Assembly (NCBI GenBank): GCA_033764955.1
Contig: JANRIL010000035.1
Location: 1-25,325, forward strand
DNA length: 25,325 nt
Source of the DNA: Cyanobacteriota bacterium
GTDB lineage: Bacteria; Cyanobacteriota; Cyanobacteriia; Thermostichales; Thermostichaceae
Direction: 5' to 3'
The notes beneath the pieces were generated by a model. That model searched no databases, was not told where the DNA came from, and saw only the letters and a program-made list of their open reading frames with translations. The first letter of the stretch is position 1. Each line of letters begins with the position of its first letter. Shown in pieces: positions 2,688 through 25,125 of this stretch. A program made the position numbers and the translations under genes.

Positions 2688-4511
2688 CTAGGAACGAAAG
2701 CGGGGTCGCAGTTCGTGATAGCCCGTTTGCTCATCCCGTTGTCGCTCAAAACGGTGGCGGAGACTTTCACCAATCACCATTTCGGCGGTGGTGTAAATCA
2801 AGCACCCAGCCTGTAGGTGGCCTCCCCTGACCTGACCAGAGGGATCCGTGATCAGCAGGTGCAAATGCACGCCACTGGGAGCGAGTGTACCCACCAAACT
2901 GACAATCTCAAAGGTGTCCCGCCATACTTGATTGGTGGTTGCTCCCGCCATTCTGAGGGTAGCCTGCCGCAAACTCCCCACGCTGGTAAGCATAAAGCCC
3001 GCTTGGATCCCCTCTTGCTGAATAAATTTCAGTAACTCTGCTTTAAGATCCTGGTGGGGATGCAGGCGCAGCACAAAGATTTGCACCGATTCTGAGGGAG
3101 AGGGGGCTGGGTATGCCGATGCAGAGGAGGATCCCGCCCCTGTTGTCCGCCCTTCACCTAAGCGCCAGCCTGGTTTGACCACCTGCCGTGCCCGCGCAAT
3201 CGCCAACACATCATCTGGCAAATTCTCAGTAATCGTGGATCCCGCCGCAATGGTGACCTGTTCCCCCACAATGAGAGGGGCTACCAACACCGAATTAGCC
3301 CCTGTTTTGCTGCCTTTGCCAATCTGGGTGGAATGTTTGGTGATGCCGTCGTAGTTGGCGATAATCGTGCCCGCTCCAATATTGACTTCCTCCCCCAGTG
3401 TGGCATCTCCTAAATAAGCCAAATGGGCAGCATTCGTGCGGGATCCGATGCGCGTATTTTTGGTCTCGACAAAATTGCCAATCCGGCAATGATCGTTGAT
3501 CTGGCTGTGGTGGCGAATATGGGCGTAGGGACCTACGGTGGTGTGATCACCAATGTCACTCTCATGCACTACTGAATAGAAAATTTGACAGTGCTGACCA
3601 ATCTGGCTGTGCTCGATCAGGCTACCGGGTCCAATCCGGCAGCCCTCACCAATCTGGGTATGCCCCCGCAGGTGGGTTTGCGGCTCGATCACCACATCCA
3701 CCCCCAGCGTAACGGTGTCATCGATCGTAATGCTATTGGGATCGACCAGGGTGACTCCCGCCGCCATCCAGTTCGCTTTGATCCGCTCCTGCAAAATTTG
3801 GTAGGCTTCCGCCAACTGCAAGCGATCATTGATCCCAGCAATTTCTTGCACATCCTGTACATCCAGAGCCAACGCTTCCGGTAAGAGAGCAATTACGTCG
3901 GTCAAGTAGTATTCCTGCTGTTGATTGTCGGTTTTCAGTTGAGGCAGAACCTCGCCTAAAACAGGCCAGTGAAAGCAATAGATTCCGGCGTTAATGCGGT
4001 GGTTTTGGCGTTGCGCCGCTGTGCAATCGCGATCCTCGACAATTTCCACCACCCGATTGTCATGGTTGCAAAACACCCGCCCATAGCCTGTGGGATCCCC
4101 TACCCGTGCCGATAACAACGTGACAGAGGGTTTTTGGGATTGGTGGGTAGCAATCAAGGATCGCAGAGTTTCCGTGCGTAAGAGGGGGACATCCGCATTG
4201 ATCACCAAAAGATCTCCCTCAAAATCAGCCAAACAGGGAATGAGTTGCTGCACAGCATGACCTGTCCCCTTTTGCTCTGGTTGCTCGACAAACTCCACCG
4301 GGTAGCCGACAAGTGCCCCCCGCACTTGCTCCTGACCGTAACCCACCACCACCAAGCACCGCTGCGGTTGAAGGAGAGAGACATTTTGAATCACCCGTTC
4401 AATCAGTGAGAGGGATCCCAGTTTGTGGAGCACCTTGGGAAGATTAGACTTCATGCGGGTGCCTTTCCCGGCTGCCAAAATTGCCACGCTGAGAGGTGCG
4501 TTTTGCCTCAT
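2688..4511 (-). CDS. glmU: Bifunctional GlmU with C-terminal PPC/DUF296 domain (start ATG 4511, or TTG 4523)
   Basis: [11 protein letters not shown] nucleotidyltransferase motif, EYYLTD, hexapeptide repeats and NYDG. A Ser/Pro linker is followed by a PPC domain ([10 protein letters not shown]...[10 protein letters not shown]...HLHL...GGHL...TTAE). Confidence 0.95.
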
Positions 4512-4554
4512 GTCTCGCCTCAATCTTCTGGCAGGAGTATAGCAGTTGTTTGGA

Positions 4555-11169: not shown

Positions 11170-11619
11170 CTAACTTTCTGGGGGATGCCATCCGGCGAGA
11201 ACCCAAAAGCGGCGTACTTCTAAAGCATCCGGATCCGTGTCGAGATGCAATACAGCAACCGTGGCTCGACCCATAGCGGTTTTGCCAACAATGCGGATCC
11301 CATCTTCCGACCACGTAAAGTGATCTGCCCACACTTGGGTACGGGGATTGAAGAGAGAAACGGTTTCGCCAGTGTGCGGATCCGGTGCTGTGGTCTTGTC
11401 GCTTTTGTAGCGGTTGCAGATGGGGCAAGCCAACCACAAGTTGGATTCGTCGCTGGTACTCCCTTTGGACAGGGGGATAATGTGTTCAATTTCCAAACGC
11501 GCCATCACCAGATGCTGAGGGCTTAAACAGAAGCCACAACGGTTCTGAGCAGCAGTACGAACTTTCCAGTCAACCTCTGCAGGGATGTAGCGTGTCAGGA
11601 CATCAAGTCCGGTTGTCAT
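11170..11619 (-). CDS. HNH endonuclease (start uncertain, ATG 11619 used)
   Basis: CGFC...EIEHIIP...NLWLACPICN...LFNPR...GRAT...GWHPP, a complete zinc-binding HNH. Confidence 0.85.
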   Translation of the reverse strand: MTTGLDVLTRYIPAEVDWKVRTAAQNRCGFCLSPQHLVMARLEIEHIIPLSKGSTSDESNLWLACPICNRYKSDKTTAPDPHTGETVSLFNPRTQVWADHFTWSEDGIRIVGKTAMGRATVAVLHLDTDPDALEVRRFWVLAGWHPPES

Positions 11620-11776
11620 GAGCAGCATTCCCGATAAACTTCGTACCCAAATCACCCAGCTCGACCAAAATCATTGTGCCTACTGCCAAACCAGCCAAGC
11701 CAACAGTGGGATCCCGTTGACTTGCGACCATATCCTGCCTCGTGTCCAAGGCGGACTCACGATCTTGGAGAATCTC
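11618..11776 (+). pseudogene. Truncated HNH endonuclease (N-terminal half)
   Basis: CAYC...DHILP...ENL, after which homology stops before the second CxxC. The rest of ORF 11618-11869 is unrelated sequence, partly antisense to the integrase C-terminus. Confidence 0.75.
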
Positions 11777-11820
11777 AGACACATACAAGTTTGGTATCGC
11801 CGACTCTGCAAAGACCAGGC

Positions 11821-12309
11821 TCAATACCACTCCGGCATCACTGGCCGACTACTAACCGCTGCTGCATAGTGTTCATAGAGTGTTTGCACATCATGTCCCG
11901 TCATCTGAGCCACCAGGAGCTTCCAAGCAGTGACTGCTCGCTGTATGTCTCGTATTGTAGAGTTTGCGATAAGGCACCTTCACATTCCCCAAAACCGACT
12001 TCCAAGCCCTTCTAGAAAAATTATGGTCATCAATCGCTAATCCGGTGGGGGTGGGGAAGACCAAGGATTCCGGATCAAGATTTTCCCCTCTTCTCACCAT
12101 TAGCATTTCCTGTAACTTGGGAGTCAATTTAACATCTCTAGATTTATTAGTTTTGGTTGCTTTGCTGACTTCTCTTGATATACTTTCACCGATCCAGACT
12201 GAACTGCAATCATGGCTCAAATGTTTCCAGCGTAAGCCGAACGCTTCCCCCGTCCGACACCCCGTACCAAACAGAAACTCCACGAAGTCTGCATAGTGGC
12301 TGTAGTAAA
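11821..12309 (-). pseudogene. Tyrosine integrase C-terminal catalytic fragment, frameshifted
   Basis: YYSHYADFVEFLFGTGCRTGEA...TKT...YNTRHT...SHCLEA, then a frameshift near 11918 to LVAQMTGHDVQTLYEHYAAAVSSRPVMPEWY* (stop 11823-11821), which contains the catalytic His and Tyr. Confidence 0.88.
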
Positions 12310-12597
12310 GGGATCCCTGTGATGGATTGGCAAGGTTTCAACAAGAGTCACATGAGATAACTCTATCCCCAGCAACTCAAATGAATTGGTCTCTAACTCA
12401 CGCAGCAGAAAGGTTGAGGCAGGTTCTCCAAGGTCTAACTTTTTCAACCCAGCTTTGATGGAAATCTCCCAACAAGTTGCAACACTCACCAGTTTTCGGT
12501 TGCTTGGGTTCTCAATCCTCTCCTTGGCAGACGGCAGCAATTTGGGATCATCCGCCAAGAACCAGAGCAGTACATGAGTGTCAAGTAATAGATTCAC
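12310..12597 (-). pseudogene. vapC: VapC/PIN toxin truncated after HHRDPF
   Basis: LLLDTHVLLW...WEISIK...LPIHHRDPF. The expected DRxLxAQ...TxD end is replaced by out-of-frame integrase sequence. Confidence 0.85.
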
Positions 12598-12833
12598 TCC
12601 ATATACTCCTGAAACTCTTCTAGAGGTTGATCGAAATCAGGAGCGATTCGGATCTTTCCCCTGGCACTGCCTGCTTTGCAAGGCCATTGTTGCTTCACCT
12701 CTGTTTGAGGAGAACGAGCCAGTTGCGCTACAGGCAGGCCATTTTCAGTAATAACAACCTCATCCCCCATCGGCAAATTATGAATTAACTCAGGTAGAGT
12801 CGCCTGTGCTTGTTGGATCGTGACCCTTGCCAT
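12594..12833 (-). CDS. Phd/YefM-type (DUF2281-like) antitoxin
   Basis: VTIQQAQATLPELI...EVVIT..G.PVAQL...GSARGKIRIAPDFDQPLEEFQEYME; 4-bp overlap with the PIN gene. Confidence 0.85.
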   Translation of the reverse strand: MARVTIQQAQATLPELIHNLPMGDEVVITENGLPVAQLARSPQTEVKQQWPCKAGSARGKIRIAPDFDQPLEEFQEYME

Positions 12834-12914
12834 ACCCGGATCCCCTTAATAAATGCTGACTAAATGTGCCCACTCCCTAACCTAGCAATTCCATGCCTGA
12901 CAACCATAGATATC

Positions 12915-13517
12915 TCAATGGGATCGAAACGACCAAAGCACCCGCCCCACTACGGCAAAATCCTCAGGTGGGTTCCGTAAATCAATCTGAAACGGTTCAT
13001 AGGCGGGATTATCACTCATAACCTTGAGCTGTTTACCTGGCAGCAGATTCAACCGCTTCACCAACAACGTCTCATCCAACCGCAGCACACTGATTCCCTC
13101 CACCACCTCACGCGGCTTCGTATCCACCAAAATCAGATCCCCAGATCTGAGCGTGGGTTCCATCGACTCCCCCCGCACCGAGATCAGATTCAACCCCTCA
13201 GGGCTGGTGTGACAGTGCAACCGGATCCATCCCTCACTGAAGGCAATCACCTCTTCCGGCTCTGTTATCTCTTCCACAAACGTGCCCAACCCTGCCCCTG
13301 CACTGATGTCAAAAATCGGGATCCGTACCAACCTATCCTCTGATTCTGGCTGAGCCATCTTGCGAAACATCGGCCCCTCACCACTCACCAACCAATCCAC
13401 ACTCACCCCCGAGCAGCGGGCAATCAGCGCCAACCGATCCGCTGTTGGCTGGGATCCGGTCAAATACTTGCGCAAGGTGCTGTCCGGCAGGCCACAGCGC
13501 AAACAGAAAGCAGACAA
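12915..13517 (-). CDS. CI/LexA-like repressor (HTH + S24 peptidase), N-terminus apparently truncated and fused to integrase sequence
   Basis: CGLPDSTLRKYL...GVSVDWLVSGEG HTH; SAG cleavage-site region; GESMEPTL (Ser); LLVKRL (Lys); SDNPAY. The first codons derive from the integrase in another frame. Confidence 0.8.
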   Translation of the reverse strand: MSAFCLRCGLPDSTLRKYLTGSQPTADRLALIARCSGVSVDWLVSGEGPMFRKMAQPESEDRLVRIPIFDISAGAGLGTFVEEITEPEEVIAFSEGWIRLHCHTSPEGLNLISVRGESMEPTLRSGDLILVDTKPREVVEGISVLRLDETLLVKRLNLLPGKQLKVMSDNPAYEPFQIDLRNPPEDFAVVGRVLWSFRSH

Positions 13518-14143
13518 AATCGTAGTAATGGCGGTAGTAACGATGGGTCTGAAAACATCCCAGGATCGCCGTTATTTCAGCCCGTGAGAACGGTTTCACC
13601 TTCTGACAAGGGGCAACTTTGCTCCGCGTCGCCAAACCATCCCAGGGATTGGGGTCAACGATCTGAATATTGCCCCTTGGCCCATTGCCAACAACTGAAC
13701 AACAGCCACAGCCGTTCCTTAGCAGTACGAGGGTTTAACCGTTCCATACATAAAGACGCGAAATCCTCAGCCCGCCGTGATGTCACTTTACTGGCCGAGA
13801 CATTCAACCACTGGGCAAGGGATCCTCCCAGTGGCTTGTATTTTGCCTCAACCGTTGAAGCTGCCAATCCCTTGGATCGTTGTTGGTGCTAAGTGAAGCG
13901 GTGGAACAGTTCTGGGGCTGTGATGTCCGTCCCATTCCGCCCCAACCGTTGCGGCTTGTATTTGAGCAAGGTGGGGTCAAAATAACCCGCCTGGATGCCC
14001 CTCTCGATCTCAGCCGCCCTCATCCTGGCAACCGACATCCCTACAGCATCCGCTTTGACACCACAAGCAAAGCAAAAACGTTTGCCTTGATGCTGCCACC
14101 GTAGGCGTAACCGCCCGTCGTGATTCTCTATCGTGACTTTCAT
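13500..14143 (-). pseudogene. Tyrosine integrase N-terminal and core-binding part with internal stop and frameshift
   Basis: MKVTIENHDGRLRLRWQHQGKRF...FDPTLLKY; TAG at 13891-13889; continues STVEAKY...PRTAKERL; then a frameshift to NPWDGL...KPFSRAEITAIL...RHYYDFVCFLF. Spans ORFs 13889-14278, 13655-13867 and 13378-13635. Confidence 0.88.
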
Positions 14144-14165
14144 CGGGGTAAATTCCGGGGTAAAT
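14144..14165. repeat. Direct repeat CGGGGTAAAT x2 (12-bp period), putative integrase arm-type sites
   Basis: Copies at 14144-14153 and 14156-14165, abutting the integrase ATG. Function is inferred. Confidence 0.6.
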
Positions 14166-14282
14166 GTATAGCCCCAAAAGCCCATAAACGCCCTGGAATT
14201 TCCTCTTAGTTGAGAAGAGCCTAAGCCTTGGGACTGCTGGGGGGATCCCCGCAAGCCTTGAAGGATAAGCTTTCTCAACCAA

Positions 14283-14327
14283 TCGGAGCGAAAGGATTTG
14301 AACCTTCGACCCCCACTACCCCAAAGT
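14283..14327 (-). mobile_element. 3' half of tRNA-Pro(GGG), att core of an integrative element
   Basis: Minus strand reads ACTTTGGGGTAGTGGGGGTCGAAGGTTCAAATCCTTTCGCTCCGA (anticodon loop, T arm, acceptor 3' strand). There is no D arm or 5' acceptor strand upstream, and an integrase is adjacent. Confidence 0.85.
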
Positions 14328-14386
14328 TGTATGCAGATGCCTAGAAATATTTTCAGATAAGCTTCTCATGATGACTGTATTTTATT

Positions 14387-14406
14387 GATACCCAAAGCGA
14401 TACCCA
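14387..14406. repeat. Direct repeat GATACCCA x2 (12-bp period), putative arm-type sites
   Basis: Copies at 14387-14394 and 14399-14406. The TACCC core is inverted relative to the 14144-14165 pair. Confidence 0.5.
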
Positions 14407-14454
14407 TTCAAAGAGATCCCTTAGCAGTAGTTCCAGGCACTATGCCTAAAATTC

Positions 14455-14880
14455 TCAAGAGGGTGGATGCCAGCCACTGTTCGCGCCAGCGGCGACTTGC
14501 CGCATCACCCATCGTATGCAGGCGGCCACGATGATCTCGTGGTTCATGCGTAGGGACTTGACTGTAGCTCGACCTGTTGGGGTTTGGCCTTCTACCCCTG
14601 TCCCGTCAGGGATCCATTGGAATTAGTCGTGCCGCTTGTTGGCGAGGATGAAACAGTGGGTTCGTGACTCCTTTGACGGGATCTAGAGTCTCAGTGGTAT
14701 CGGATTTGTATTCGTTACAGGTGGGGTAGGCCAGACAGAGATTCACCAAGATCGTGAGTTCACCACAGGTACGCGGGAGAATGTGTTTGCCTTTGGCGCA
14801 CCATAGGTGATCTACTGTCAATGGGATCCCACTGTTGGCTTCGTTGATTTGACAGTAGGTGCAGCTCGCAGCATTGCTGT
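14455..14880 (-). pseudogene. HNH endonuclease pseudogene with frameshift, stop and two 24-nt in-frame insertions
   Basis: CTYC...DH[LWCAKGKH]ILP...NLCLAYPTCN...LFHPRQQ, then a frameshift to HD*FQWIPDG...TPTGRATV...RWVM[RQVAAGAN]SGWHPPS* (stop 14457-14455). The 5' boundary is approximate. Confidence 0.8.
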
Positions 14881-15034
14881 TGCAATCAGGCAGTGATACA
14901 ACGGATCCGAGCCCCTGCTTGAAAATCTCTGATTTCACCTATTCTGGCGTTAATCAAATAACATAAACTTGTGATTATGTCAAGAATCAGCCCTAGAAAA
15001 TCTATAGTTTTGAGGCTGTGCGTAGTTTTTGTGA

Positions 15035-15850
15035 TTGAATATCGATAGGATTGATGGCCCTCTTACTCGTCTGATGCAGGATCCTAAGCTGAGATTGGTA
15101 CAAAGTGATAACTCGGCAAGATTGACCATTAATGTTGATGGCCCATACTTGCCACTTGACAAGTTTCGTGCTGCTCTTAATTATTTTTCACAAATTCTTG
15201 TTGATGTGGATAAAGAGACCTCTGAAAATGGTTCTCCCACCATCGAATGGGCAATCACGGATGTCAGGAATGGAAGCTTACATCTTACGGTTGAAGCTAA
15301 TGTCCTCAGCGAAGATATAGAGCTAAAGCGACCATCAGATGTAATCTCGATCTTCAAGAAAGGAATCCAATCTATCCAAGACCAAGGAATCCGACCAGAA
15401 GGATTTTCCAACAAGTCTATTAAGGCAGCAAAGCAGTTTGCGAATATCCTTGATCCGGATAATATTGCAGAGATAGGCTTCAGAAGTAATGGTACTGAGG
15501 TAAAGATTCAACCTCAGCTTTTTGCCAATGCCACACAAATTATTAGCAATCACTATAAGTACTTCGGCTCTGTCGAAGGTACGCTAGTTTCAATCAGTGT
15601 TGCGAAAAGACGACAATTTGGTATTAGGGTTTCTTCCCAAAACAAGATCATTAAATGTTTCTTTCAACATGATATGCAGGAAGAGGCTAAAAACTATCTA
15701 GAGAAACGGGTTTACGTATATGGCTTGATTCGCCAGCTTCTACATGGTGATAAAGTTAATGTTGAGGTGCAAGAGATCAAGAGACTTCCTGATTGGAGTG
15801 AGGCTGTTTCGGCTGAAGCATTACTTCGAATGATCAGAGGTGAGTCTTGA
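15035..15850 (+). CDS. Hypothetical protein, putative large antitoxin/partner of the downstream PIN gene (start TTG 15035 or ATG 15074)
   Basis: Intact AT-rich ORF with a 4-bp overlap (TTGA) with the PIN gene. The C-terminal beta-rich region suggests an OB fold (inferred). Confidence 0.8.
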   Translation: MNIDRIDGPLTRLMQDPKLRLVQSDNSARLTINVDGPYLPLDKFRAALNYFSQILVDVDKETSENGSPTIEWAITDVRNGSLHLTVEANVLSEDIELKRPSDVISIFKKGIQSIQDQGIRPEGFSNKSIKAAKQFANILDPDNIAEIGFRSNGTEVKIQPQLFANATQIISNHYKYFGSVEGTLVSISVAKRRQFGIRVSSQNKIIKCFFQHDMQEEAKNYLEKRVYVYGLIRQLLHGDKVNVEVQEIKRLPDWSEAVSAEALLRMIRGES

Positions 15851-16344
15851 TAACAGAGGTGCATTATTTAGATGCTTGTGTGTTTTTGGGCTATCTTAAC
15901 TCAGATAGTGAACCAAACAATGCAAGAGAGTGTAAGCTGATCATAAAGGCAGCAGAAGAACAAAAAATTAAGGTTGTGACTTCTGCATTTTCTGAATCAG
16001 AAGTTTTTGGCATCAAAGATCCTAAAAATCCACCAAATAAGCTCGATGCTATTCTGTCAGAACCTATAATTAAGAGTTTATTTGAAATGCCTTGGTTAGA
16101 TCTTGCTTCTTATGATCGAGAAATTGCTGAGATTAGTAGGTATGTATCAAGAACATATGGAGTTAAGCCTGTAGATGCTACCCATATTGCAACTGCCATA
16201 AGGATGAAAGTTGATTTTTTTGATACTGTTGATGATGCCTTACTAAGGAAGTTTCCCGAAAAGGTTAGCTATCCACCCTTGTATCCAAAAGTAATAGTTC
16301 TTCAGCGACCATTTATTGATAATTATAATCCTTTGTTTTTATAG
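15847..16344 (+). CDS. PIN-domain (VapC-like) nuclease
   Basis: YLDACVF, SESEV, DATHIATA and DTVDDAL supply the acidic PIN tetrad. Confidence 0.85.
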   Translation: MITEVHYLDACVFLGYLNSDSEPNNARECKLIIKAAEEQKIKVVTSAFSESEVFGIKDPKNPPNKLDAILSEPIIKSLFEMPWLDLASYDREIAEISRYVSRTYGVKPVDATHIATAIRMKVDFFDTVDDALLRKFPEKVSYPPLYPKVIVLQRPFIDNYNPLFL

Positions 16345-16620
16345 ATTCTAAATGGCTAGGTTTTTCACTTAAAAGATCCCAGGTGGATTACTTGATGTGG
16401 ATGTGAGTTTCACTGGGGAGCAGGTGGACACTTGACACACTCACGCATTTTACTAGGCAACCGGATCCCACCTATATCAGCCTTGAACACAGGATAGTAG
16501 ATCTACTCATGTTGCTCCTTGCAGGAGAATCCTGGCTAAAAAGCTTGTCTGTGAGTCAGGGTGGCCTATATTGAGCTAAGTAAGGGTAACAAACCATTGT
16601 CTGTACTTGGCTTCACGCTG

Positions 16621-18273
16621 ATGGATCCGCAAGAAGATCAGTTTCTTAAAGACCTGGATAAACGGCTCTGGACAGCTGCCGATAAGCTGCGGGCGAATGT
16701 GGATGCGGCAGTTTATAAGCATGTGGTGTTGGGGCTGATCTTTCTCAAGTACGTTTCGGATGCTTTCAACGAGCGGCGGATGGAGCTGGAGCGTCAGTTT
16801 CGGGATCCTGAGGATGAGTATTACCTGGGTGACGATGAGGGGTTGATTGCGGGGGAGTTGGAAACACGCGATTACTACACCGAGAAGAATGTGTTTTGGG
16901 TACCTGCTCTGGCTCGGTGGGAGACGCTGCAAAACAATGCGAAGCTTCCACCTGGCACGGTCATCGAAATCAAGAATGGTAAGACGGATGCCTACGAGAT
17001 GAAGGGGATCGGTCGGTTGCTGGATGATGCGCTGGAAGCGGTGGAGAAAGATAATCCCAAACTGAAAAATGTGCTGAGTAAGGATTACGCTCGGCTGCAA
17101 GTGGATCCGGCGAAACTGAGTGGGTTAATTGATTTGATTGCTACGGTGCCTTTTACGCATGAGTCCCTTAAGGCTAAAGATATTTTGGGTCATGTGTATG
17201 AGTATTTTTTGGGTGAGTTTGCCAGTGCGGAAGGGAAGAAGGGCGGGCAGTATTACACTCCTAAGGCCATTGTCGGTTTGATCGTGGAGATGTTGGAGCC
17301 GTTTCAAGGACGGGTGTATGACCCTTGCTGTGGATCCGGTGGATTTTTTGTGCAGTCGGAGCGGTTTATTGAGGAACACGCGGATCAGCAGCATTACAAG
17401 CCTGAGGAGCAAAAGCGGAAAATCTCGATCTATGGGCAGGAGTCCAACCCGACAACTTGGCGACTTTCAGTGATGAATTTAGCGATCCGTGGGCTTGATT
17501 ATGATCTGGGCAAGGAACCTGCGGATACGTTTAGTCGGGATCAGCATCCTGATTTACGGGCAGATTTCATTATGGCGAATCCCCCTTTTAATATGGATGA
17601 ATGGGGTGGCAAACAGGATGATCCTCGCTGGAAGTATGGGATCCCGCCTATGCGGAATGCCAACTTTGCCTGGATGCAGCACATGATCTACCATCTGGCT
17701 CCGAATGGGAGTATGGGGCTTTTGCTGTCGAATGGCTCGATGAGTTCTAACACGAATAATGAGGGGGAGATCCGTAAGGCGATTATTGAGGCGGATCTGG
17801 TGGAGTGTATGGTGGCGTTGCCAGGTCAGCTTTTTACGAATACGCAAATTCCAGCTTGTATTTGGTTCCTCTCTCGCAACAAGGCGGCGCGGAATGGGTG
17901 GCGAGATAGGCGTGAGGAAGTTTTGTTTATTGATGCCCGCGATGTCGGCTATATGAAGGAGCGGGTGTTGCGAGACTTTAAACCAAAAGATATCCGGCGG
18001 ATTGCGGACACATTCCATGCTTGGAAACGGGAGCAGGGCTATGAAGATGTGCCTGGTTTCTGTAAGAGTTCGACAGTGGCTGATATTCGCAGCAAAGATT
18101 ATGTGTTGACCCCAGGGCGATATGTGGGGGCGGCGGCTCAAGAAGAAGATGGGGAGCCTTTCGAGGAAAAAATGGCTCGGTTGACGGCTGAGTTGAAACA
18201 ACAGTTTGAGGAAGGGGCGCGGTTGGAGCAGGTGATCCGGCAGAACTTGCGAGGGATCGGGTATGACCTCTGA
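16621..18273 (+). CDS. hsdM: Type I R-M methyltransferase subunit (likely start ATG 16621; ORF open from 16561)
   Basis: LWTAADKLR, GQYYTP, DPCCGSGGF (motif I), NPPF (motif IV) and LTPGRYVG. Confidence 0.96.
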   Translation: MDPQEDQFLKDLDKRLWTAADKLRANVDAAVYKHVVLGLIFLKYVSDAFNERRMELERQFRDPEDEYYLGDDEGLIAGELETRDYYTEKNVFWVPALARWETLQNNAKLPPGTVIEIKNGKTDAYEMKGIGRLLDDALEAVEKDNPKLKNVLSKDYARLQVDPAKLSGLIDLIATVPFTHESLKAKDILGHVYEYFLGEFASAEGKKGGQYYTPKAIVGLIVEMLEPFQGRVYDPCCGSGGFFVQSERFIEEHADQQHYKPEEQKRKISIYGQESNPTTWRLSVMNLAIRGLDYDLGKEPADTFSRDQHPDLRADFIMANPPFNMDEWGGKQDDPRWKYGIPPMRNANFAWMQHMIYHLAPNGSMGLLLSNGSMSSNTNNEGEIRKAIIEADLVECMVALPGQLFTNTQIPACIWFLSRNKAARNGWRDRREEVLFIDARDVGYMKERVLRDFKPKDIRRIADTFHAWKREQGYEDVPGFCKSSTVADIRSKDYVLTPGRYVGAAAQEEDGEPFEEKMARLTAELKQQFEEGARLEQVIRQNLRGIGYDL

Positions 18274-19312
18274 GTTGGTGCCGATGGGATATGAGGAGTT
18301 GCTGCGGGATCTGAAGGATCGGATCCGCACGGCTCAGGTACGGGCGGCGCTGGCGGTGAATCGGGAGTTGGTGTTGCTCTCTTGGCAGATTGGACGGGAG
18401 ATTTTGCGGCGACAGGGGCAGGAAGGTTGGGGATCCAAAGTGATTGATCGGTTGGGGCAGGATCTGAAGCGTGAATTTCCCGATATAACTGGATTCTCAC
18501 CACGCAACATCAAATATATGCGGGCGTTTGCTGAGGCATGGCCAGATGAATTAATAGTGCAACAGGTTGTTGCACAAATTCCTTGGGGGCATAATGTGCG
18601 GTTGCTCGATAAACTAACGGATCCGATGGAACGGCTTTGGTATGCTCAGTCAGTGGTGGAGAATGGCTGGAGTCGGGCGATTCTGGAATATCAGATCGAG
18701 AGTAAGCTTTATCAACGACAGGGATCCTCGACGACTAATTTTGAACGGACGTTGCCGAAGCCACAGTCGGATCTGGCGCAGCAGTTGATCAAGGATCCGT
18801 ATACGTTTGATTTCTTGAGTTTGGGGAAGGAAGCACAGGAACGGGATCTGGAAAACGCTCTAGTCACCCATATCCGAGATTTTTTACTGGAATTGGGGGT
18901 AGGGTTTGCCTTTGTGGGTAATCAGTATCATCTGACAGTGGGCGGGGATGATTTTTATATTGATCTGTTGTTTTATCACCTAAAATTGCGCTGTTATGTG
19001 GTGATTGATCTGAAGATGACAGAGTTTAAGCCGGAGTATTCGGGCAAGATGAGTTTTTATGTGTCGGCGGTGGATGATCTGCTACGGGATCCGGTGGATA
19101 AGCCTACGATTGGGATCATTTTGTGTAAGTCGAAGAATAAGGCTGCGGCGGAGTATGCGTTGCGGGATGTGAATAAGCCGATTAGCATTTCGACTCATCA
19201 AATCAGGGAGTCTTTGCCGGAGTCAATGCAAGGGATCCTGCCGACCATTAAGCAGTTGGAGATAGAGTTAGCAACAGTAGATATAGATAGAAAAACAGAG
19301 GTGAACGAATGA
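18263..19312 (+). CDS. YhcG/DUF1016 PD-(D/E)XK nuclease-domain protein
   Basis: AALAVNRELVLL.WQIG, GFSPRNI, KDPYTFDFL and DLLFYHLKLRCYVVIDLK. Confidence 0.93.
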   Translation: MTSELVPMGYEELLRDLKDRIRTAQVRAALAVNRELVLLSWQIGREILRRQGQEGWGSKVIDRLGQDLKREFPDITGFSPRNIKYMRAFAEAWPDELIVQQVVAQIPWGHNVRLLDKLTDPMERLWYAQSVVENGWSRAILEYQIESKLYQRQGSSTTNFERTLPKPQSDLAQQLIKDPYTFDFLSLGKEAQERDLENALVTHIRDFLLELGVGFAFVGNQYHLTVGGDDFYIDLLFYHLKLRCYVVIDLKMTEFKPEYSGKMSFYVSAVDDLLRDPVDKPTIGIILCKSKNKAAAEYALRDVNKPISISTHQIRESLPESMQGILPTIKQLEIELATVDIDRKTEVNE

Positions 19313-19623
19313 TTACAAGACAAGTCGGGTTAGGAATTTCTGATATCGTTGGATCTAAACGTGAAGAGATTTTGTCAATAGCTGCTAAGCATGGAGCCTC
19401 TAAGGTTAGAGTGTTCGGATCCGTTGCCAGAGGTGAGGCTAGGGTAGATAGCGATATTGATTTTTTGATAGATTATGATTTAGAAAGAATTAGTTCTTGG
19501 TTTCCGATGGGACTGATTCATGATTTAGAAGACTTGTTGCAACGAAGAGTAGATATCATACCTTCAGATTCGATCCATCCAGCAATTTGTGACCAGATCC
19601 TGCGAGAGGCGGTTACTTTATGA
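19309..19623 (+). CDS. Minimal nucleotidyltransferase (MNT, HEPN-MNT antitoxin type)
   Basis: FGSVARGEARVDSDIDF (GS-x10-DxD) and LEDLLQRRVDI; 104 aa. Confidence 0.9.
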   Translation: MITRQVGLGISDIVGSKREEILSIAAKHGASKVRVFGSVARGEARVDSDIDFLIDYDLERISSWFPMGLIHDLEDLLQRRVDIIPSDSIHPAICDQILREAVTL

Positions 19624-20921
19624 TTAATCAATTCCCAGATTACTGGGATCTAATTCCTCTCGAAGATTGCATGGAAGCAATCATTGACTATCGAGGGAAA
19701 ACGCCTAACAAAACCTCTTTCGGCATACCATTAATTACCGCAAAAATAATAAAAAATGGGCGAATTGAACCTGCTGAAGAATACATAAATCCGGATGATT
19801 ATGATGATTGGATGAGGAGAGGGTTACCACAACCTGGGGATATCGTTATGACCACTGAGGCTCCTTTAGGGGAGATAGCTCAGCTAGACAAAAGGAAAGT
19901 AGCCTTAGCCCAAAGATTGATTACACTCAGAGGGAAACAACATCTTCTTGATAATAATTACTTGAAATTCCTTCTGCAATCGTCGTTTGTTCAGGATCAG
20001 CTTAATGCAAGATCTACAGGGACAACAGTACTTGGTATTAAGCAAAGTGAACTTCGAAAAGTGTTGCTGGTTATTCCACCTCTCCCTGAACAAAAAGCGA
20101 TCGCCTCGATCCTCGGATCCCTAGACGACAAGATAGAACTCAACCGTCAGACGAACAAAACCTTAGAGGCAATGGCTCAGGCGATCTTCAAATCCTGGTT
20201 TGTGGATTTTGATCCGGTGCGGGCTAAAGCTGAAGGACGGGATCCGGTGGGGATGGATGCCGAAACTGCCGCCCTCTTTCCCTCGGAGTTTGTGGATTCA
20301 GAGTTGGGACGGATCCCGAAGGGGTGGCGACAACTCCCATTAAATGAAGTGATGGAGATCAACCCATATAGACCCTTAGGTAAAGGAGTAGAAGCACCTT
20401 ACCTAGATATGCAAAATATGCCAACACAGGGACATCGTCCTAGTGGGTGGATTTATCGCCCCTTTGGATCCGGTATGAAATTCCAAAACGGGGATACGTT
20501 AGTAGCCAGAATTACTCCATGCCTTGAGAATGGGAAAACAGCTTTTGTTGATTTTCTAGATTATGGACAAGTAGGATGGGGATCAACAGAGTATATCGTT
20601 ATCAGACCTAAGTCACCATTTCCATTAGAGTATGGATATCTTCTTGCACGAGATGAAGATTTCAGAGCTTTTATGATACAAAATATGACTGGCACAAGTG
20701 GAAGACAACGTGTTCCTGCCTCAAGCCTGTCTCAATATTTTGTTGCTGTACCAGACAATCATATTAGTCATGCTTTCAGAAAGATAATTAGACCAATTCT
20801 CAAAACAATAAAGTCAAATTCGGAGCAGACATTGATATTAACGGAAACAAGAGATATTCTTTTGCCTAAAATACTATCAGGCCAATTGACTGAATTACTA
20901 TCTGGGGTTGCATATGGATAG
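19620..20921 (+). CDS. hsdS: Type I R-M specificity subunit
   Basis: Two TRDs separated by PPLPEQKAIASILGSLDDKIELN...LEAMAQAIFKSWFVDF...SELGRIPKGW; C-terminal RDILLPKILSG. Confidence 0.95.
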   Translation: MINQFPDYWDLIPLEDCMEAIIDYRGKTPNKTSFGIPLITAKIIKNGRIEPAEEYINPDDYDDWMRRGLPQPGDIVMTTEAPLGEIAQLDKRKVALAQRLITLRGKQHLLDNNYLKFLLQSSFVQDQLNARSTGTTVLGIKQSELRKVLLVIPPLPEQKAIASILGSLDDKIELNRQTNKTLEAMAQAIFKSWFVDFDPVRAKAEGRDPVGMDAETAALFPSEFVDSELGRIPKGWRQLPLNEVMEINPYRPLGKGVEAPYLDMQNMPTQGHRPSGWIYRPFGSGMKFQNGDTLVARITPCLENGKTAFVDFLDYGQVGWGSTEYIVIRPKSPFPLEYGYLLARDEDFRAFMIQNMTGTSGRQRVPASSLSQYFVAVPDNHISHAFRKIIRPILKTIKSNSEQTLILTETRDILLPKILSGQLTELLSGVAYG

Positions 20922-22023
20922 AGGACAGCAGCAAAAGCATCTTATTGATGTAGCAATTCAGATTCTCATAGCTCAATACGAATCGAATAATGAATTTAAT
21001 ACTGACTTTGATCAGTTAGGCTTGGTTTCTATTGGGAAATATCAATACGAAGCAAGTAAAGTTTTATTTTGGACTGATCAACAAGCATACAATATCGAAA
21101 AGAAAGCATGGGAAGATTATTCTGTCGAACAACGTAATGCCGAAGCTATCAAACTGTTAAAAGATAATGATCAGACAGTACCATTTAAGGCGATTGTAGA
21201 AGCAGTAAAACGACAACGAGTTATCCCTTTTATAGGGGCAGGCTTATCTAAACCAATGGGAATGCCACAATGGGGAGAGGCTCTCAAGAAATTACACCTC
21301 AGAATGGCTATTAACAATAATATAATAGATAAACTCATAGATAGTGGCGATTTTCTTGAGGCAGCAGAACTTCTTTTTCTTCATGACACCGATGTATGCA
21401 ATAATTTCATTAATACGACTTATAATGTCCAAAAAATCATAGGATCAATATTGCTTTTGCCAAGCATTTTCAAGGGATGTGTAGTCACCACAAATTTCGA
21501 CAAAGCAATCGAACAATCCTATGATCTTGCGGGCATTAGTTTTGATGGATATATGCATGGCACTCAGGAACATAATTTCTTTGTAAGGTTGGTAAAAGGA
21601 GATCGGTGTATTCTAAAGTTGCATGGAGATGCAGAGGATTCGGGAACATTTGTCTTCACTAGATCACAGTATCAGGACGCATATGGCTCTCCTCTAAATT
21701 TTTCTAATTCACTACCTCAGGCACTTCGGCAAATATATCTCAGTAGCTCATTAATTTTCATTGGATGTAGCTTGGAACAGGATTGGACATTAGATTTGTT
21801 TAGGAACATTCGAGATGCGGGTGGATTTAAAACACCAAATCATTATGCTTTTCTTTCTGAGCCAGATGCTTATAGTCAGCAAACAAAACAGCAAAAAGAA
21901 TCTCGATTGTTGTCACTCGGAATTCAGCCAATTTGGTATCCCTCTAAAAAGCATGAATATGTCGAGAAATTACTACAGCTTGTGATTGACATCGCAGAAA
22001 ATCGTATATCTTGTCCAAGCTAG
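20914..22023 (+). CDS. SIR2-like domain protein with an uncharacterised ~85 aa N-terminal extension
   Basis: PFIGAGLS, VTTNFD, LKLHG and LIFIGCS sirtuin-fold motifs; ATG 20914 overlaps the hsdS end. Confidence 0.88.
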   Translation: MDRGQQQKHLIDVAIQILIAQYESNNEFNTDFDQLGLVSIGKYQYEASKVLFWTDQQAYNIEKKAWEDYSVEQRNAEAIKLLKDNDQTVPFKAIVEAVKRQRVIPFIGAGLSKPMGMPQWGEALKKLHLRMAINNNIIDKLIDSGDFLEAAELLFLHDTDVCNNFINTTYNVQKIIGSILLLPSIFKGCVVTTNFDKAIEQSYDLAGISFDGYMHGTQEHNFFVRLVKGDRCILKLHGDAEDSGTFVFTRSQYQDAYGSPLNFSNSLPQALRQIYLSSSLIFIGCSLEQDWTLDLFRNIRDAGGFKTPNHYAFLSEPDAYSQQTKQQKESRLLSLGIQPIWYPSKKHEYVEKLLQLVIDIAENRISCPS

Positions 22024-22032
22024 GGGGAAGCC

Positions 22033-25000
22033 ATGATGAACGAAAACGACATTGAGCAATTAGCCCTAACTTGGTTTCAAGATAACGGATGGGCTTACCT
22101 CTACGGCCCCGACATCGCCCCCGACGGATCCACCCCTGAGCGCACCGATTACCGCCAAGTCTTACTCCCTAACCCCCTACTCGAAGCACTCTATCGCCTT
22201 AATCCTAGTGTCCCAGGATCCACATTAGAAGAAGTCCGCGACCGCATCGGCAGACCCCAACATCCCTCATTGATCCAAAACAACCGAGCCTTTCACGAAT
22301 CCCTGGTCGAAGGGATCCCAGTCGAGTATGAACAAAACGGAGAAAAGCGTGGGGATCGAGTCAAGTTGATCGACTTCCAACAGCCAGAACGTAACCGTTA
22401 CCTCGTCGTCAACCAATTCACCGTCCAAGGCACCCAACAACTCCGCCGCCCCGATATCGTCGTCTTCATCAACGGCTTACCCATCGCTGTTATCGAACTC
22501 AAAAATCCACTCGATCAACAAACCGATATCTGGAAAGCCTTCCACCAGTTAGAAACCTACAAAGCCGAAATCCCCGATCTATTTGTCTACAACGTCGCTC
22601 TGATCATCTCCGATGGCATCCATGCCCGCGTCGGATCCCTGACCGCCAATCCAGAACGATTCATGCCCTGGCGCACCATTCGCAACGAAAAAGATAAACC
22701 CCTTCTAGAATACGAACTCGAAAAAATCGTGCGCGGCTTCTTTGCTCCCGATCTATTCCTCGACTACATCCGCCACTTCATCCTGTTTGAGCAAACTAGC
22801 GACCAAATCATCAAAAAAATCGCAGGCTATCACCAATTTCACGCCGTGCGAGAAGCCGTGCAAGCCACCCTCAAAGCCTCAGGATCCGGAGGTAACCGTC
22901 GCGGTGGCGTAATTTGGCACACCCAAGGATCCGGTAAAAGTATTTCGATGGCCTTCTTTGCCGGAAAACTGATCCAGCAACCCGAAATGCATAACCCTAC
23001 CCTGGTCATGGTCACCGACCGAAATGATCTTGATGGGCAACTTTACGAAACCTTCTGCACCGCCCAAGCCCTACTCAAAGAAACTCCCATCCAAGCCGAA
23101 GATCGAGAACAACTCCGCACCCTACTAGCTGGACGACCATCCGGCGGCATCATCTTTACCACCATGCAGAAATTCACCCTCATCGGTGACGAAGCCCAAT
23201 TTCCCGAACTCTCCCATCGCACCAACATCATCGTCATCGCCGACGAAGCCCACCGCACCCAATACGGCTTAGAAGCAAAACTAGATCAGAAGACAGGCAA
23301 ATATCGCTATGGCTATGCCAAACACCTAAGAGATGCCCTACCTCTTGCAACCTTCGTCGGCTTCACCGGAACCCCAATCGAAAACGAAGACACCGACACC
23401 CGCGCCGTTTTCGGAGAATACGTCAGCATCTATGACATTCAAGATGCCGTCCTCGATGGATCCACCGTCCCCATTTACTATGAAAGCCGCCTAGCCAAAC
23501 TGGATATCAACCCAGCCGAAATGGAGCAGCTCAACGAAGAGATCGAAGAAGTATTCGAAGACGATGAAGACACCGCCCAACGCCAACAAGCCATGACCAA
23601 ATGGGCAACACTCGAAAAATTAGTCGGAGCAGAATCCCGCATTCAAGAAGTCGCCGCCGATCTCGTCACCCACTTTGAAACCCGCCTCACCAGCATCGAG
23701 GGGAAAGGAATGATCGTCGGCATGAGCCGCGAAATCTGTGTGCATCTCTACAACGCCATCACCACCCTTCGCCCCGACTGGCACAACTCAGATCCCCTAC
23801 AAGGATCCATCAAAATCATCATGACCGGATCCGCGAGTGACACCGAATTCCTGCGCCCCCACATCTACAGCCCCACCACTAAAAAGCAACTGGAAAAACG
23901 CTTTAAGGATCCGAATGATCCACTCCAACTTGTCATTGTTCGGGATATGTGGCTCACAGGCTTTGATGCCCCTTGTCTGCACACAATGTATATCGACAAG
24001 CCCATGAAAGGCCACAACCTAATGCAGGCAATAGCTCGCGTAAATCGAGTCTTCCACGAAAAACAAGGTGGTCTAGTCGTTGACTACATCGGCATTGCCG
24101 CCGAGCTGAAACGAGCACTCAAAACCTATACCGACAGCCGAGGTAAAGGAGCACCCACCCTCAATGCACCGGAAGCCTTAGCCCGATTGCTCGAACTCAT
24201 GGAAATCACACATGGCATGTTTCATGGATTCGACTACAGTAAGTATCGCCAAAATGCCGTCAGCCTATTACTCCCTGCCGCTAACTTTATTCTTGGCCTC
24301 GAAGACGGCAAAAAGCGATATTTTGATGCCATTTTAGGCATTACGAAAGCCTTCTCCCTCTGTGGCACCCTAGATGAAGCTCAAATTCTCCGAGAAGAAA
24401 TCGCCTTCTTCCAATCCATCAAATTAGTGATCACCCGTGCCACAACCCCAGAGAAAAAACTCACAGCCGATCGTAAAGACGAAATCCTCAAACAGATTAT
24501 TGACAACGCCATTATTTCCGAAGGCGTAGAAGACATCCTCAAACTGGCTGGATTAGAACGCCCAGATCTCAGCATCCTCTCCGATTCGTTCTTAGATGAA
24601 GTCAGAGCATTACCAGAACGCAACCTAGCCGTTGAGCTATTACAAAAACTTCTCAACGATCAAATCCAATCCCGCACTCGCAACAACGTTGTCATAGAAC
24701 GCAAATTTAGTGATCGTCTGGAAGCTGCATTAAATCGCTACCACAGTCGAGCCATAGAGAGCGCCCAGGTGATCGAAGAGTTGATCAGCATGGCGAAAGA
24801 GTACCGCGAGGCGGCCAAACGCGGAGAGAACTTAGGACTCAATGAATCCGAGCTAGCCTTTTATGATGCTCTGGCTGACAACGAAAGTGCTGTTCGTGAA
24901 CTGGGGGATCAAGTTCTCAAACAAATTGCCCAAGAACTCACCGAAAAGCTGCGAAACAGTACCACGGTAGATTGGCAGAAACGAGAGAGTGTCCGCGCTC

Positions 25001-25125
25001 GTCTCAGAAACCTCGTCAGGATCATCCTACGCCGCTATAAATACCCACCCGATCAACAAGAAAATGCGATCACTCTAGTGCTTCAACAAGCCGACAGATT
25101 ATCGGAAGACTGGAGTATTAGCTGA
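22033..25125 (+). CDS. hsdR: Type I R-M restriction subunit
   Basis: RPDIVVFINGLPIAVIELK nuclease motif, TQGSGKS, DEAH, FTGTP, LTGFD, QAIARVNR and a DUF3387-like tail. Confidence 0.97.
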   Translation: MMNENDIEQLALTWFQDNGWAYLYGPDIAPDGSTPERTDYRQVLLPNPLLEALYRLNPSVPGSTLEEVRDRIGRPQHPSLIQNNRAFHESLVEGIPVEYEQNGEKRGDRVKLIDFQQPERNRYLVVNQFTVQGTQQLRRPDIVVFINGLPIAVIELKNPLDQQTDIWKAFHQLETYKAEIPDLFVYNVALIISDGIHARVGSLTANPERFMPWRTIRNEKDKPLLEYELEKIVRGFFAPDLFLDYIRHFILFEQTSDQIIKKIAGYHQFHAVREAVQATLKASGSGGNRRGGVIWHTQGSGKSISMAFFAGKLIQQPEMHNPTLVMVTDRNDLDGQLYETFCTAQALLKETPIQAEDREQLRTLLAGRPSGGIIFTTMQKFTLIGDEAQFPELSHRTNIIVIADEAHRTQYGLEAKLDQKTGKYRYGYAKHLRDALPLATFVGFTGTPIENEDTDTRAVFGEYVSIYDIQDAVLDGSTVPIYYESRLAKLDINPAEMEQLNEEIEEVFEDDEDTAQRQQAMTKWATLEKLVGAESRIQEVAADLVTHFETRLTSIEGKGMIVGMSREICVHLYNAITTLRPDWHNSDPLQGSIKIIMTGSASDTEFLRPHIYSPTTKKQLEKRFKDPNDPLQLVIVRDMWLTGFDAPCLHTMYIDKPMKGHNLMQAIARVNRVFHEKQGGLVVDYIGIAAELKRALKTYTDSRGKGAPTLNAPEALARLLELMEITHGMFHGFDYSKYRQNAVSLLLPAANFILGLEDGKKRYFDAILGITKAFSLCGTLDEAQILREEIAFFQSIKLVITRATTPEKKLTADRKDEILKQIIDNAIISEGVEDILKLAGLERPDLSILSDSFLDEVRALPERNLAVELLQKLLNDQIQSRTRNNVVIERKFSDRLEAALNRYHSRAIESAQVIEELISMAKEYREAAKRGENLGLNESELAFYDALADNESAVRELGDQVLKQIAQELTEKLRNSTTVDWQKRESVRARLRNLVRIILRRYKYPPDQQENAITLVLQQADRLSEDWSIS

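Follow-up and report, generated by a model that had tools for sequence, protein, structure and literature searches.

A VapC-like PIN nuclease coupled to an N-domain/OB-fold protein: a candidate toxin–antitoxin module with a putative sensor-bearing antitoxin

The window, a 25,325-nucleotide contig taken whole from a 3.8-Mb cyanobacterial genome assembly that is 89% complete, carries two overlapping genes, A and B, in which a large protein containing an OB fold precedes a VapC-like PIN nuclease. The pair is best explained as a type II toxin–antitoxin module with an oversized, three-part, sensor-bearing antitoxin, most likely serving in defence against phages or mobile DNA, an explanation to which we give an even chance. 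The longest open reading frame (ORF) of gene A runs intact on the forward strand from a TTG at 15035 to 15850 and encodes 271 residues. The true start is probably the ATG at 15074, which gives 258 residues (15074–15850), because the nearest homologue, a protein of 256 residues with 63% identity, starts at the equivalent methionine; residues of gene A are counted here from the TTG at 15035. Gene B (15847–16344, forward strand) is intact, encodes 165 residues and has the four bases 15847–15850 in common with gene A. This 4-bp stop/start overlap and a Shine-Dalgarno-like AGAGG (together 15836–15850, forward strand), as read from the sequence, are consistent with translational coupling of A and PIN. 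The GC content is 0.41 in gene A and 0.35 in gene B compared with 0.515 in the genome, where each gene has one copy. Promoter and terminator scans at the locus remained at chance level. An 18-nucleotide, 78% inverted repeat around the pair (14989–15006 and 16340–16357) is a chance feature, one of eight similar pairs in 2.9 kb.

Upstream of the pair lies a decayed island (11170–14938), which contains an intact HNH gene alongside two remnants of HNH genes sharing a 43-nucleotide repeat, an integrase split into two separated pieces, a gene for a CI/LexA-like repressor, and a small vapBC-like pair made of a DUF2281/Phd-like gene and a truncated-looking PIN gene. Downstream (16561–25125) is a type I restriction-modification (R-M) operon carrying three inserted genes, namely a DUF1016/YhcG nuclease gene (PADLOC PDC-S02, E = 1e-157), a lone nucleotidyltransferase gene and, between hsdS and hsdR, a SIR2-like gene whose top PADLOC matches are LmuA and ThsA with E values of about 1e-21. 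The first-pass annotation had described two intact AT-rich ORFs with a 4-bp overlap beside decayed island genes, and this description is borne out by the coordinates and base composition, by the HNH remnant at 14606–14938, whose match is below threshold, and by the divided integrase. Elsewhere in the window, the product of positions 2688–4523 is GlmU-like and is prolonged at its C-terminus by a segment that, by eye, resembles a PPC/DUF296 domain. Over the whole genome, the palindrome GGGATCCC occurs at 1.29 per kb compared with 0.03 per kb for the usual cyanobacterial HIP1 GCGATCGC.

A PIN gene or gene fragment is found directly 3' of A at 64 of the 69 evaluable loci and in 44 of the 48 clusters at 90% nucleotide identity, and so the pairing read from a single locus in the first-pass annotation holds for the homologues of gene A as well. 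The A–PIN pairing is far beyond chance. The sample consists of 73 loci (L001–L027, L030, L031, L051–L054 and L056–L096), 69 of which have at least 150 bases downstream; the window's own locus, the distant scaffold variants L028, L029 and L055, and the loci fetched with other families are excluded. Among 401 cyanobacterial genomes, all seven matches to the PIN clade of gene B, distributed over six genomes, follow an A gene, one of them across a contig break, and no lone PIN of this clade was seen. Matches of gene A are patchy, occurring in 10 of 401 and 5 of 301 genomes. The linked loci come from cyanobacteria, from the phylum of L018 (Thermoanaerobaculia), from metagenomes and from three viral contigs. 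Two tblastn queries gave no match in plasmid and phage collections, a search in which single distant queries are insensitive. On a Nostoc contig (L011) and on the IMG/VR contigs L094 and L095, the pair adjoins a phage tape-measure gene; on one of these two IMG/VR contigs, an IS1595 transposase gene precedes the pair and a methylase–Mrr gene follows it.

Gene A has no match above cut-off in Pfam or NCBIfam, no match in PHROGs and no PDB sequence match over the cut-off. With a profile built from 11 close homologues and clustering at 50% identity, the family comprises 2,240 clusters at E ≤ 1e-3 and 1,016 at the stricter limit of E ≤ 1e-10, and 30 look-alike clusters in the ESM Atlas (best scores of 0.96–0.97) have no Pfam family in common. 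No longer fused forms were found among 8,000 candidates searched, which is weak evidence. The AlphaFold2 model of gene A, built with 148 sequences, has a mean pLDDT of 93.4 and consists of an alpha/beta domain, an OB fold and a tail helix. The N-terminal alpha/beta domain (residues 29–171; 15119–15547, forward strand) reaches a pLDDT of 97.3 when modelled alone. Its best fold match is weak and lies among ferredoxin-like folds (Z = 5.7, rmsd 3.4, 94 residues aligned), and Foldseek gives no match at E ≤ 0.001, an absence of relatives that does not make the fold new. The best-conserved residues of this domain are W, G, S, P and F, which are of structural rather than catalytic types, suggesting that the domain is probably not an enzyme.

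The second domain of gene A (residues 172–255; 15548–15799, forward strand) is an OB fold in the model, with a Z score of 9.8 to the SSB structure 4dam (rmsd 3.8, 83 residues aligned, many OB folds tied) and a Foldseek E value of 2e-4 to Stn1. Since the OB domains of SSB, RPA, Stn1, MCM and tRNA synthetases, the last being anticodon-binding domains, are matched about equally, the comparison shows the fold and not the ligand; the Pfam family tRNA_anti-codon is matched in 4 of the 148 members. About 16 residues lead from the OB fold to the end of the protein. Conservation and the complex model described below mark the C-terminal tail (residues 251–271, with a helix at 260–267; 15785–15847, forward strand) as the predicted PIN-binding segment, which has the family consensus LPxxxDxxGIL. 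The models and the fold search thus support the anatomy that had been proposed from the letters of the sequence, namely an alpha/beta N-domain, an OB fold and a toxin-binding tail. The accompanying claim that the partner of the PIN protein has no RHH, AbrB or Phd domain also stands, because none of the 148 aligned members matches an RHH, AbrB, Phd/YefM or HTH Pfam family at E ≤ 0.01. Among viral proteins, a DUF6575 protein is one of those whose fold matches that of gene A over the whole length (E = 9e-12).

PIN proteins of the VapC type are metal-dependent RNases. Gene B matches the Pfam PIN family PF01850 above the cut-off (E = 8.2e-10), and alignments show that the full acidic tetrad noted in the first-pass annotation is present here and in the family: in a set of 34 full-length homologues with less than 80% identity, drawn from the 45 that the loci contain, D9 is conserved in 33 and E52, D110 and D129 in all 34. 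No NCBIfam VapC model matches gene B, and no PADLOC model does so at E ≤ 1. The PIN family carries a C-terminal extension with an aligned Gln in 21 of 34 and an aligned Leu in 29 of 34 homologues. The strict pattern QxxL[FY] or QxxLx[FLM], the six-residue form of which is presumably a variant of the clamp-binding motif, is present within the final 45 residues in 15 of the 34 PIN proteins, compared with 103 of the 1,816 long ORFs of the genome (5.7%), none of the 34 PIN N-terminal stretches, and a mean of 1.6 and a maximum of 7 in 1,000 shuffles. Because the pattern was picked after inspection of the tails and the homologues are related to each other, this count shows conservation, not function. 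The motif resembles the beta-clamp-binding motif, for which the available parts of two papers give a QL[S/D]LF-like consensus at protein C-termini (PMC4549789, PMC9690074). It is clean at L023 and L021, for example, and degenerate in the window's own PIN, which has lost the Gln (motif position 16324–16341, forward strand). At the Microcystis-type loci L023, L024 and L026, the pair lies beside a methylase that is Dam-like by eye and whose C-terminus is also clamp-binding-like.

An ESMFold2 model of the A–PIN complex has a score of 0.75, compared with 0.00 for the best of three controls; 116 of 157 solved complexes attain the mark set for this score, as do 2 of 215 mismatched pairs. The score may come in part from likeness to solved VapBC complexes. 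Separate runs share at least 87% of the contacts, and the pLDDT of the partners is at least 83. In the model, the tail of A (residues 251–268) lies against residues 16–20, 33–37 and 56–82 of PIN, with residues 260, 263, 264 and 267 making the nearest contacts with PIN helices. Residues 174–181, 199–201, 225 and 234–237 of the OB domain also touch PIN, residue 181 facing PIN residues 85–86, and the catalytic acids of PIN are absent from the contacts listed. The model supports binding of A to PIN through both the tail and a face of the OB fold, and it is very probable that A binds and regulates PIN. Conservation is about equal at interface (0.50) and non-interface (0.45) positions of the OB domain, and since conserved OB residues touch PIN in the model, nucleic-acid binding cannot be deduced from the fact that they are conserved.

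Loci with damaged genes show a difference in the order of decay. No intact PIN gene accompanies a broken A at any of the ten distinct loci with room to judge (L015, L016, L017, L026, L027, L080–L083 and L088), and a full or nearly full A occurs with a broken or absent PIN gene at seven loci (L002, L006, L007, L053, L069, L085 and L086), L007 having lost the tail of A too. These counts omit loci cut by contig ends (L090–L093, L096 and others). The ten broken-A loci represent about three lineages, and so the asymmetry is statistically weak; it is also possible that some of the breaks are assembly errors. Such an order is the pattern expected if PIN is a toxin and is lost first. The complex model and the decay order point, only indirectly, to an antitoxin role for A.

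A defence gene is present among the nearest ORFs at 8 of 30 loci (L001, L002, L004, L005, L057, L078, L079 and L095), a raw count without a background rate, obtained by comparing 124 nearest ORFs with Pfam and 89 of these also with PADLOC. The neighbours at these eight loci are R-M, Hma, Dnd/Pbe, DrmD-like, HEC-09 or methylase genes; a type I R-M operon encloses the pair at L004 and adjoins it in the window. The other 22 loci have no clear defence gene nearby, three of them with weaker candidates, and many loci lie among housekeeping genes. Of the 44 clusters whose upstream sequence spans 300 bases or more, 10 have an IS1595 transposase gene immediately 5' of A. Terminal inverted repeats surround the transposase, A and PIN genes at three of the four loci examined (L072, L073 and L074) and were not found at L095, and 8-bp target duplications are readable at L074 and L073. 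A–PIN relatives are cargo of IS1595 transposons. At the other transposase-linked loci, a search with a simple terminal-repeat pattern did not locate the two ends together. No IS1595 match was obtained by tblastn with four transposases in the window's genome at its 89% completeness, and none lies beside any cyanobacterial copy. In the IS1595 element at L073 (4007–7385), flanked by its 8-bp target duplication, A and PIN are followed by a SocA-like/Panacea antitoxin gene and a further ORF. This carriage of relatives by IS1595 and the conserved clamp-binding-like motif in the PIN tail are new relative to the first-pass annotation.

Profile comparisons indicate that the N-domain/OB scaffold is reused with other toxin-binding domains. 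The gene A profile matches L028, a longer-tailed version accompanied by another kind of VapC, with a probability of 97.9 (L055 is similar), DUF6575 fusions located after small enzyme-like genes with a probability of 90.7, and L035 with a probability of 88.3 over 207 columns. L035, a protein of 357 residues located behind an hsdS gene and followed by a 94-residue HicA-like gene, fits class 8 hicBA by size and layout only. According to the available part of Gerdes 2024 (PMC10865869), class 8 HicB consists of an N-domain without known relative (1–171), a LysRS-like middle domain (175–253), which is read here as an OB fold, and a HicB fold, and has no DNA-binding domain. As far as that text goes, class 8 hicBA resembles the A–PIN pair in that the antitoxin gene comes first and the N-domain of about 170 residues has no known relative, and domain boundaries are nearly those of gene A, so that the scaffold is in print once, as part of a predicted antitoxin with another toxin. 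Gene A itself shows such an N-domain and a LysRS-like middle domain by model, fold search and the profile match to L035. The two differ in that the third domain of gene A is a 20-residue tail instead of a HicB fold of about 90 residues, and in that gene B encodes a 165-residue PIN protein instead of a HicA toxin of about 95 residues.

Gene A also matches the PADLOC candidate PDC-M32A weakly (E = 8.9e-5), within the first 223 of its 375 positions (65–223), and 7 of the 148 members do so at E ≤ 0.01. The full PDC-M32 pair of A and B is not found at this locus: gene A is missing the C-terminal domain of PDC-M32A, and gene B has no PADLOC match. Since the same scaffold carries other toxin-binding domains in these proteins, gene A is a variant of class 8 HicB and PDC-M32A and a member of neither. 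At L032, L033 and L034, the C-terminal domain of PDC-M32A stands alone before a PDC-M32B-like gene, which makes it a partner-binding domain that can be separated. In the DUF6575 fusions, the C-terminal part is matched by PDC-M63B, from another PADLOC candidate. In cyanobacteria, PDC-M63B-like proteins with an N-terminal extension (L097, L099, L100 and L101) are each encoded immediately behind a gene whose product of about 170 residues is nuclease-like and which we take to be DUF4365-like; a link of gene A to these four proteins is unsupported, since the profile probability is 0.3 compared with 0.1 for a reversed control. In one E. coli strain, defence was unaffected by deletion of PDC-M63AB, as stated in the available text of 10.1101/2024.12.20.629700, a result that weighs against the defence reading of the A–PIN pair. 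PD-T4-10B was rejected as a carrier of the scaffold (probability 0.2 against the gene A profile), and models of PD-T4-10, in which a small A protein is followed by a DUF6575 protein, gave no match in the window's genome, where the controls also gave none. The DUF6575 proteins at L036, L037, L038, L046 and L047 follow small genes that look RES/ADP-ribosyltransferase-like by eye, one of which has a weak PD-T4-10A match (E = 1.7e-5); this hints that the PD-T4-10 'antitoxin' may be an enzyme.

The A–PIN pair resembles VapBC in that a PIN protein with a conserved acidic site is preceded by a directly upstream, overlapping partner gene, and in that a short C-terminal segment of the partner is modelled on the PIN surface. 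It differs from VapBC in that A is three times larger (258–271 residues) and has an OB fold in place of an AbrB, RHH, Phd or HTH domain, and in that the PIN family of gene B has a C-terminal extension with the clamp-binding-like motif. A small antitoxin with one of those four domains is not present, though A might still bind DNA through another fold. Two anti-phage systems of two genes likewise combine a PIN protein with a non-VapB partner. DS-5 of DefensePredictor, as far as the available text describes it (PMC13092281), has components of 166 residues and, for the PIN protein, 376 residues; compared by size with 258 and 165 residues here, it is not the A–PIN pair. In HEC-03 the partner is an ABC ATPase, according to the available part of 10.1101/2024.01.29.577857. 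The toxin of Caulobacter SocAB binds the beta sliding clamp via a short motif, which provides a precedent for the C-terminus of PIN. SocB blocks replication by binding, as reviewed in PMC9690074, whereas the motif here is on a nuclease and is degenerate in the window copy. No published description of the A–PIN pair was found in a search with thin coverage of subscription papers, bioRxiv supplements (e.g. PADLOC candidate tables) and the class 8 supplement, and the available text of 10.1101/2025.01.08.631966 mentions neither PIN nor an OB fold. The proposal of a candidate new system in the first-pass annotation therefore stands insofar as no named system in the libraries and papers checked contains the pair, but not for the scaffold, which is in print in class 8 HicB and has the weak match to PDC-M32A.

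These observations lead to a plausible mechanism for a toxin–antitoxin module. In the sequences, A and PIN are a coupled unit of two genes with joint inheritance. In the modelled complex, the tail helix of A is held in a groove between PIN helices, and the OB domain grips PIN residues 80–92 with its conserved GSVEG strand and with R225. By analogy with PIN/VapC biology, and from the decay patterns, free PIN may be a harmful metal-dependent RNase that is neutralised by A; that PIN is toxic and neutralised is likely. The modularity of the family suggests that the N-domain/OB scaffold may replace the usual DNA-binding domain and act as a portable sensor that recurs in combination with further toxin-binding domains. 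On meeting a sign of infection, for which a phage replication protein or single-stranded nucleic acid is the most plausible candidate, A would release PIN, and the released PIN would cut RNA and thereby stop the infected cell. An anti-phage role of the pair is slightly favoured, and a nucleic-acid trigger acting through the OB fold is a tentative suggestion.

The pair may alternatively be a two-component nuclease in which PIN depends on A as an obligate co-factor, the OB fold bringing it tRNA, an RNA primer or single-stranded DNA (ssDNA) as substrate, and in which defence requires both genes. DS-5 is a precedent for such an arrangement and counts against the toxin–antitoxin reading, being, as described in the available text (PMC13092281), a validated two-gene PIN defence system and not a toxin–antitoxin system. 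The direct packing of the OB domain on PIN in the model and its resemblance to anticodon-binding and ssDNA-binding domains agree with a co-factor, and the absence of orphan PIN genes would also fit a PIN protein that is useless alone. However, the scaffold bears antitoxin-type domains (the HicB fold of class 8 and VapB-like tails) with unrelated toxins, to which a regulator is better suited, and a harmless PIN predicts intact PIN genes beside broken A genes, of which the ten loci show none. A co-factor role is considered unlikely. It is with similarly low probability that the pair is a selfish addiction module, that is, a plain stabilising toxin–antitoxin pair and passenger of IS1595 and islands that has no phage trigger and uses its extra domains for autoregulation or stability. 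The transposase upstream of A in 10 of 44 clusters, the repeats enclosing the genes at three of four loci, the frequent decay and the housekeeping surroundings are all in line with a passenger, but a two-domain scaffold of 230 residues is a high price for plain addiction and has been kept in different phyla and with different types of toxin, the transposase is absent beside cyanobacterial copies and from the window genome, and two insensitive tblastn queries gave no match in the plasmid collection.

Inverted roles, in which the N-domain/OB protein is the toxic effector, acting for example by binding ssDNA, and is restrained by PIN, are highly improbable. The larger second component is toxic in PD-T4-10, where it is a DUF6575 protein, and in PD-lambda-2, according to the available part of PMC9519451, and DUF6575 is also fused to the scaffold of gene A; however, the C-terminal part of PD-T4-10B reaches a probability of only 0.2 against the scaffold, full-length A persists without an intact PIN at L002, L006, L053, L069 and L086, and the catalytic residues of PIN are invariant. 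A speculative and rather improbable further reading is an immune nuclease linked to the replication fork, in which PIN would sit on the beta sliding clamp by way of the motif at its C-terminus, the SSB-like OB fold would read ssDNA or a foreign replisome, and nucleic acid, not tRNA, would be cut at or in response to invading forks; the scaffold would then be a general sensor that IS1595 transposons disperse and that is attached to PIN, to HicA and to further toxins.

How toxin–antitoxin systems detect infection is understood in only a few cases. Returning to the toxin–antitoxin reading, the family, large and unnamed, supplies a candidate sensor that is folded and is seen again beside toxins of unrelated kinds, which makes sensing accessible to tests by swapping tails and deleting domains. 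Should the clamp-binding motif prove real, a VapC-like nuclease would be tied to DNA replication, a link not found in print. One scaffold joins candidates that have been listed separately, namely class 8 HicB, PDC-M32A and the DUF6575 fusions.
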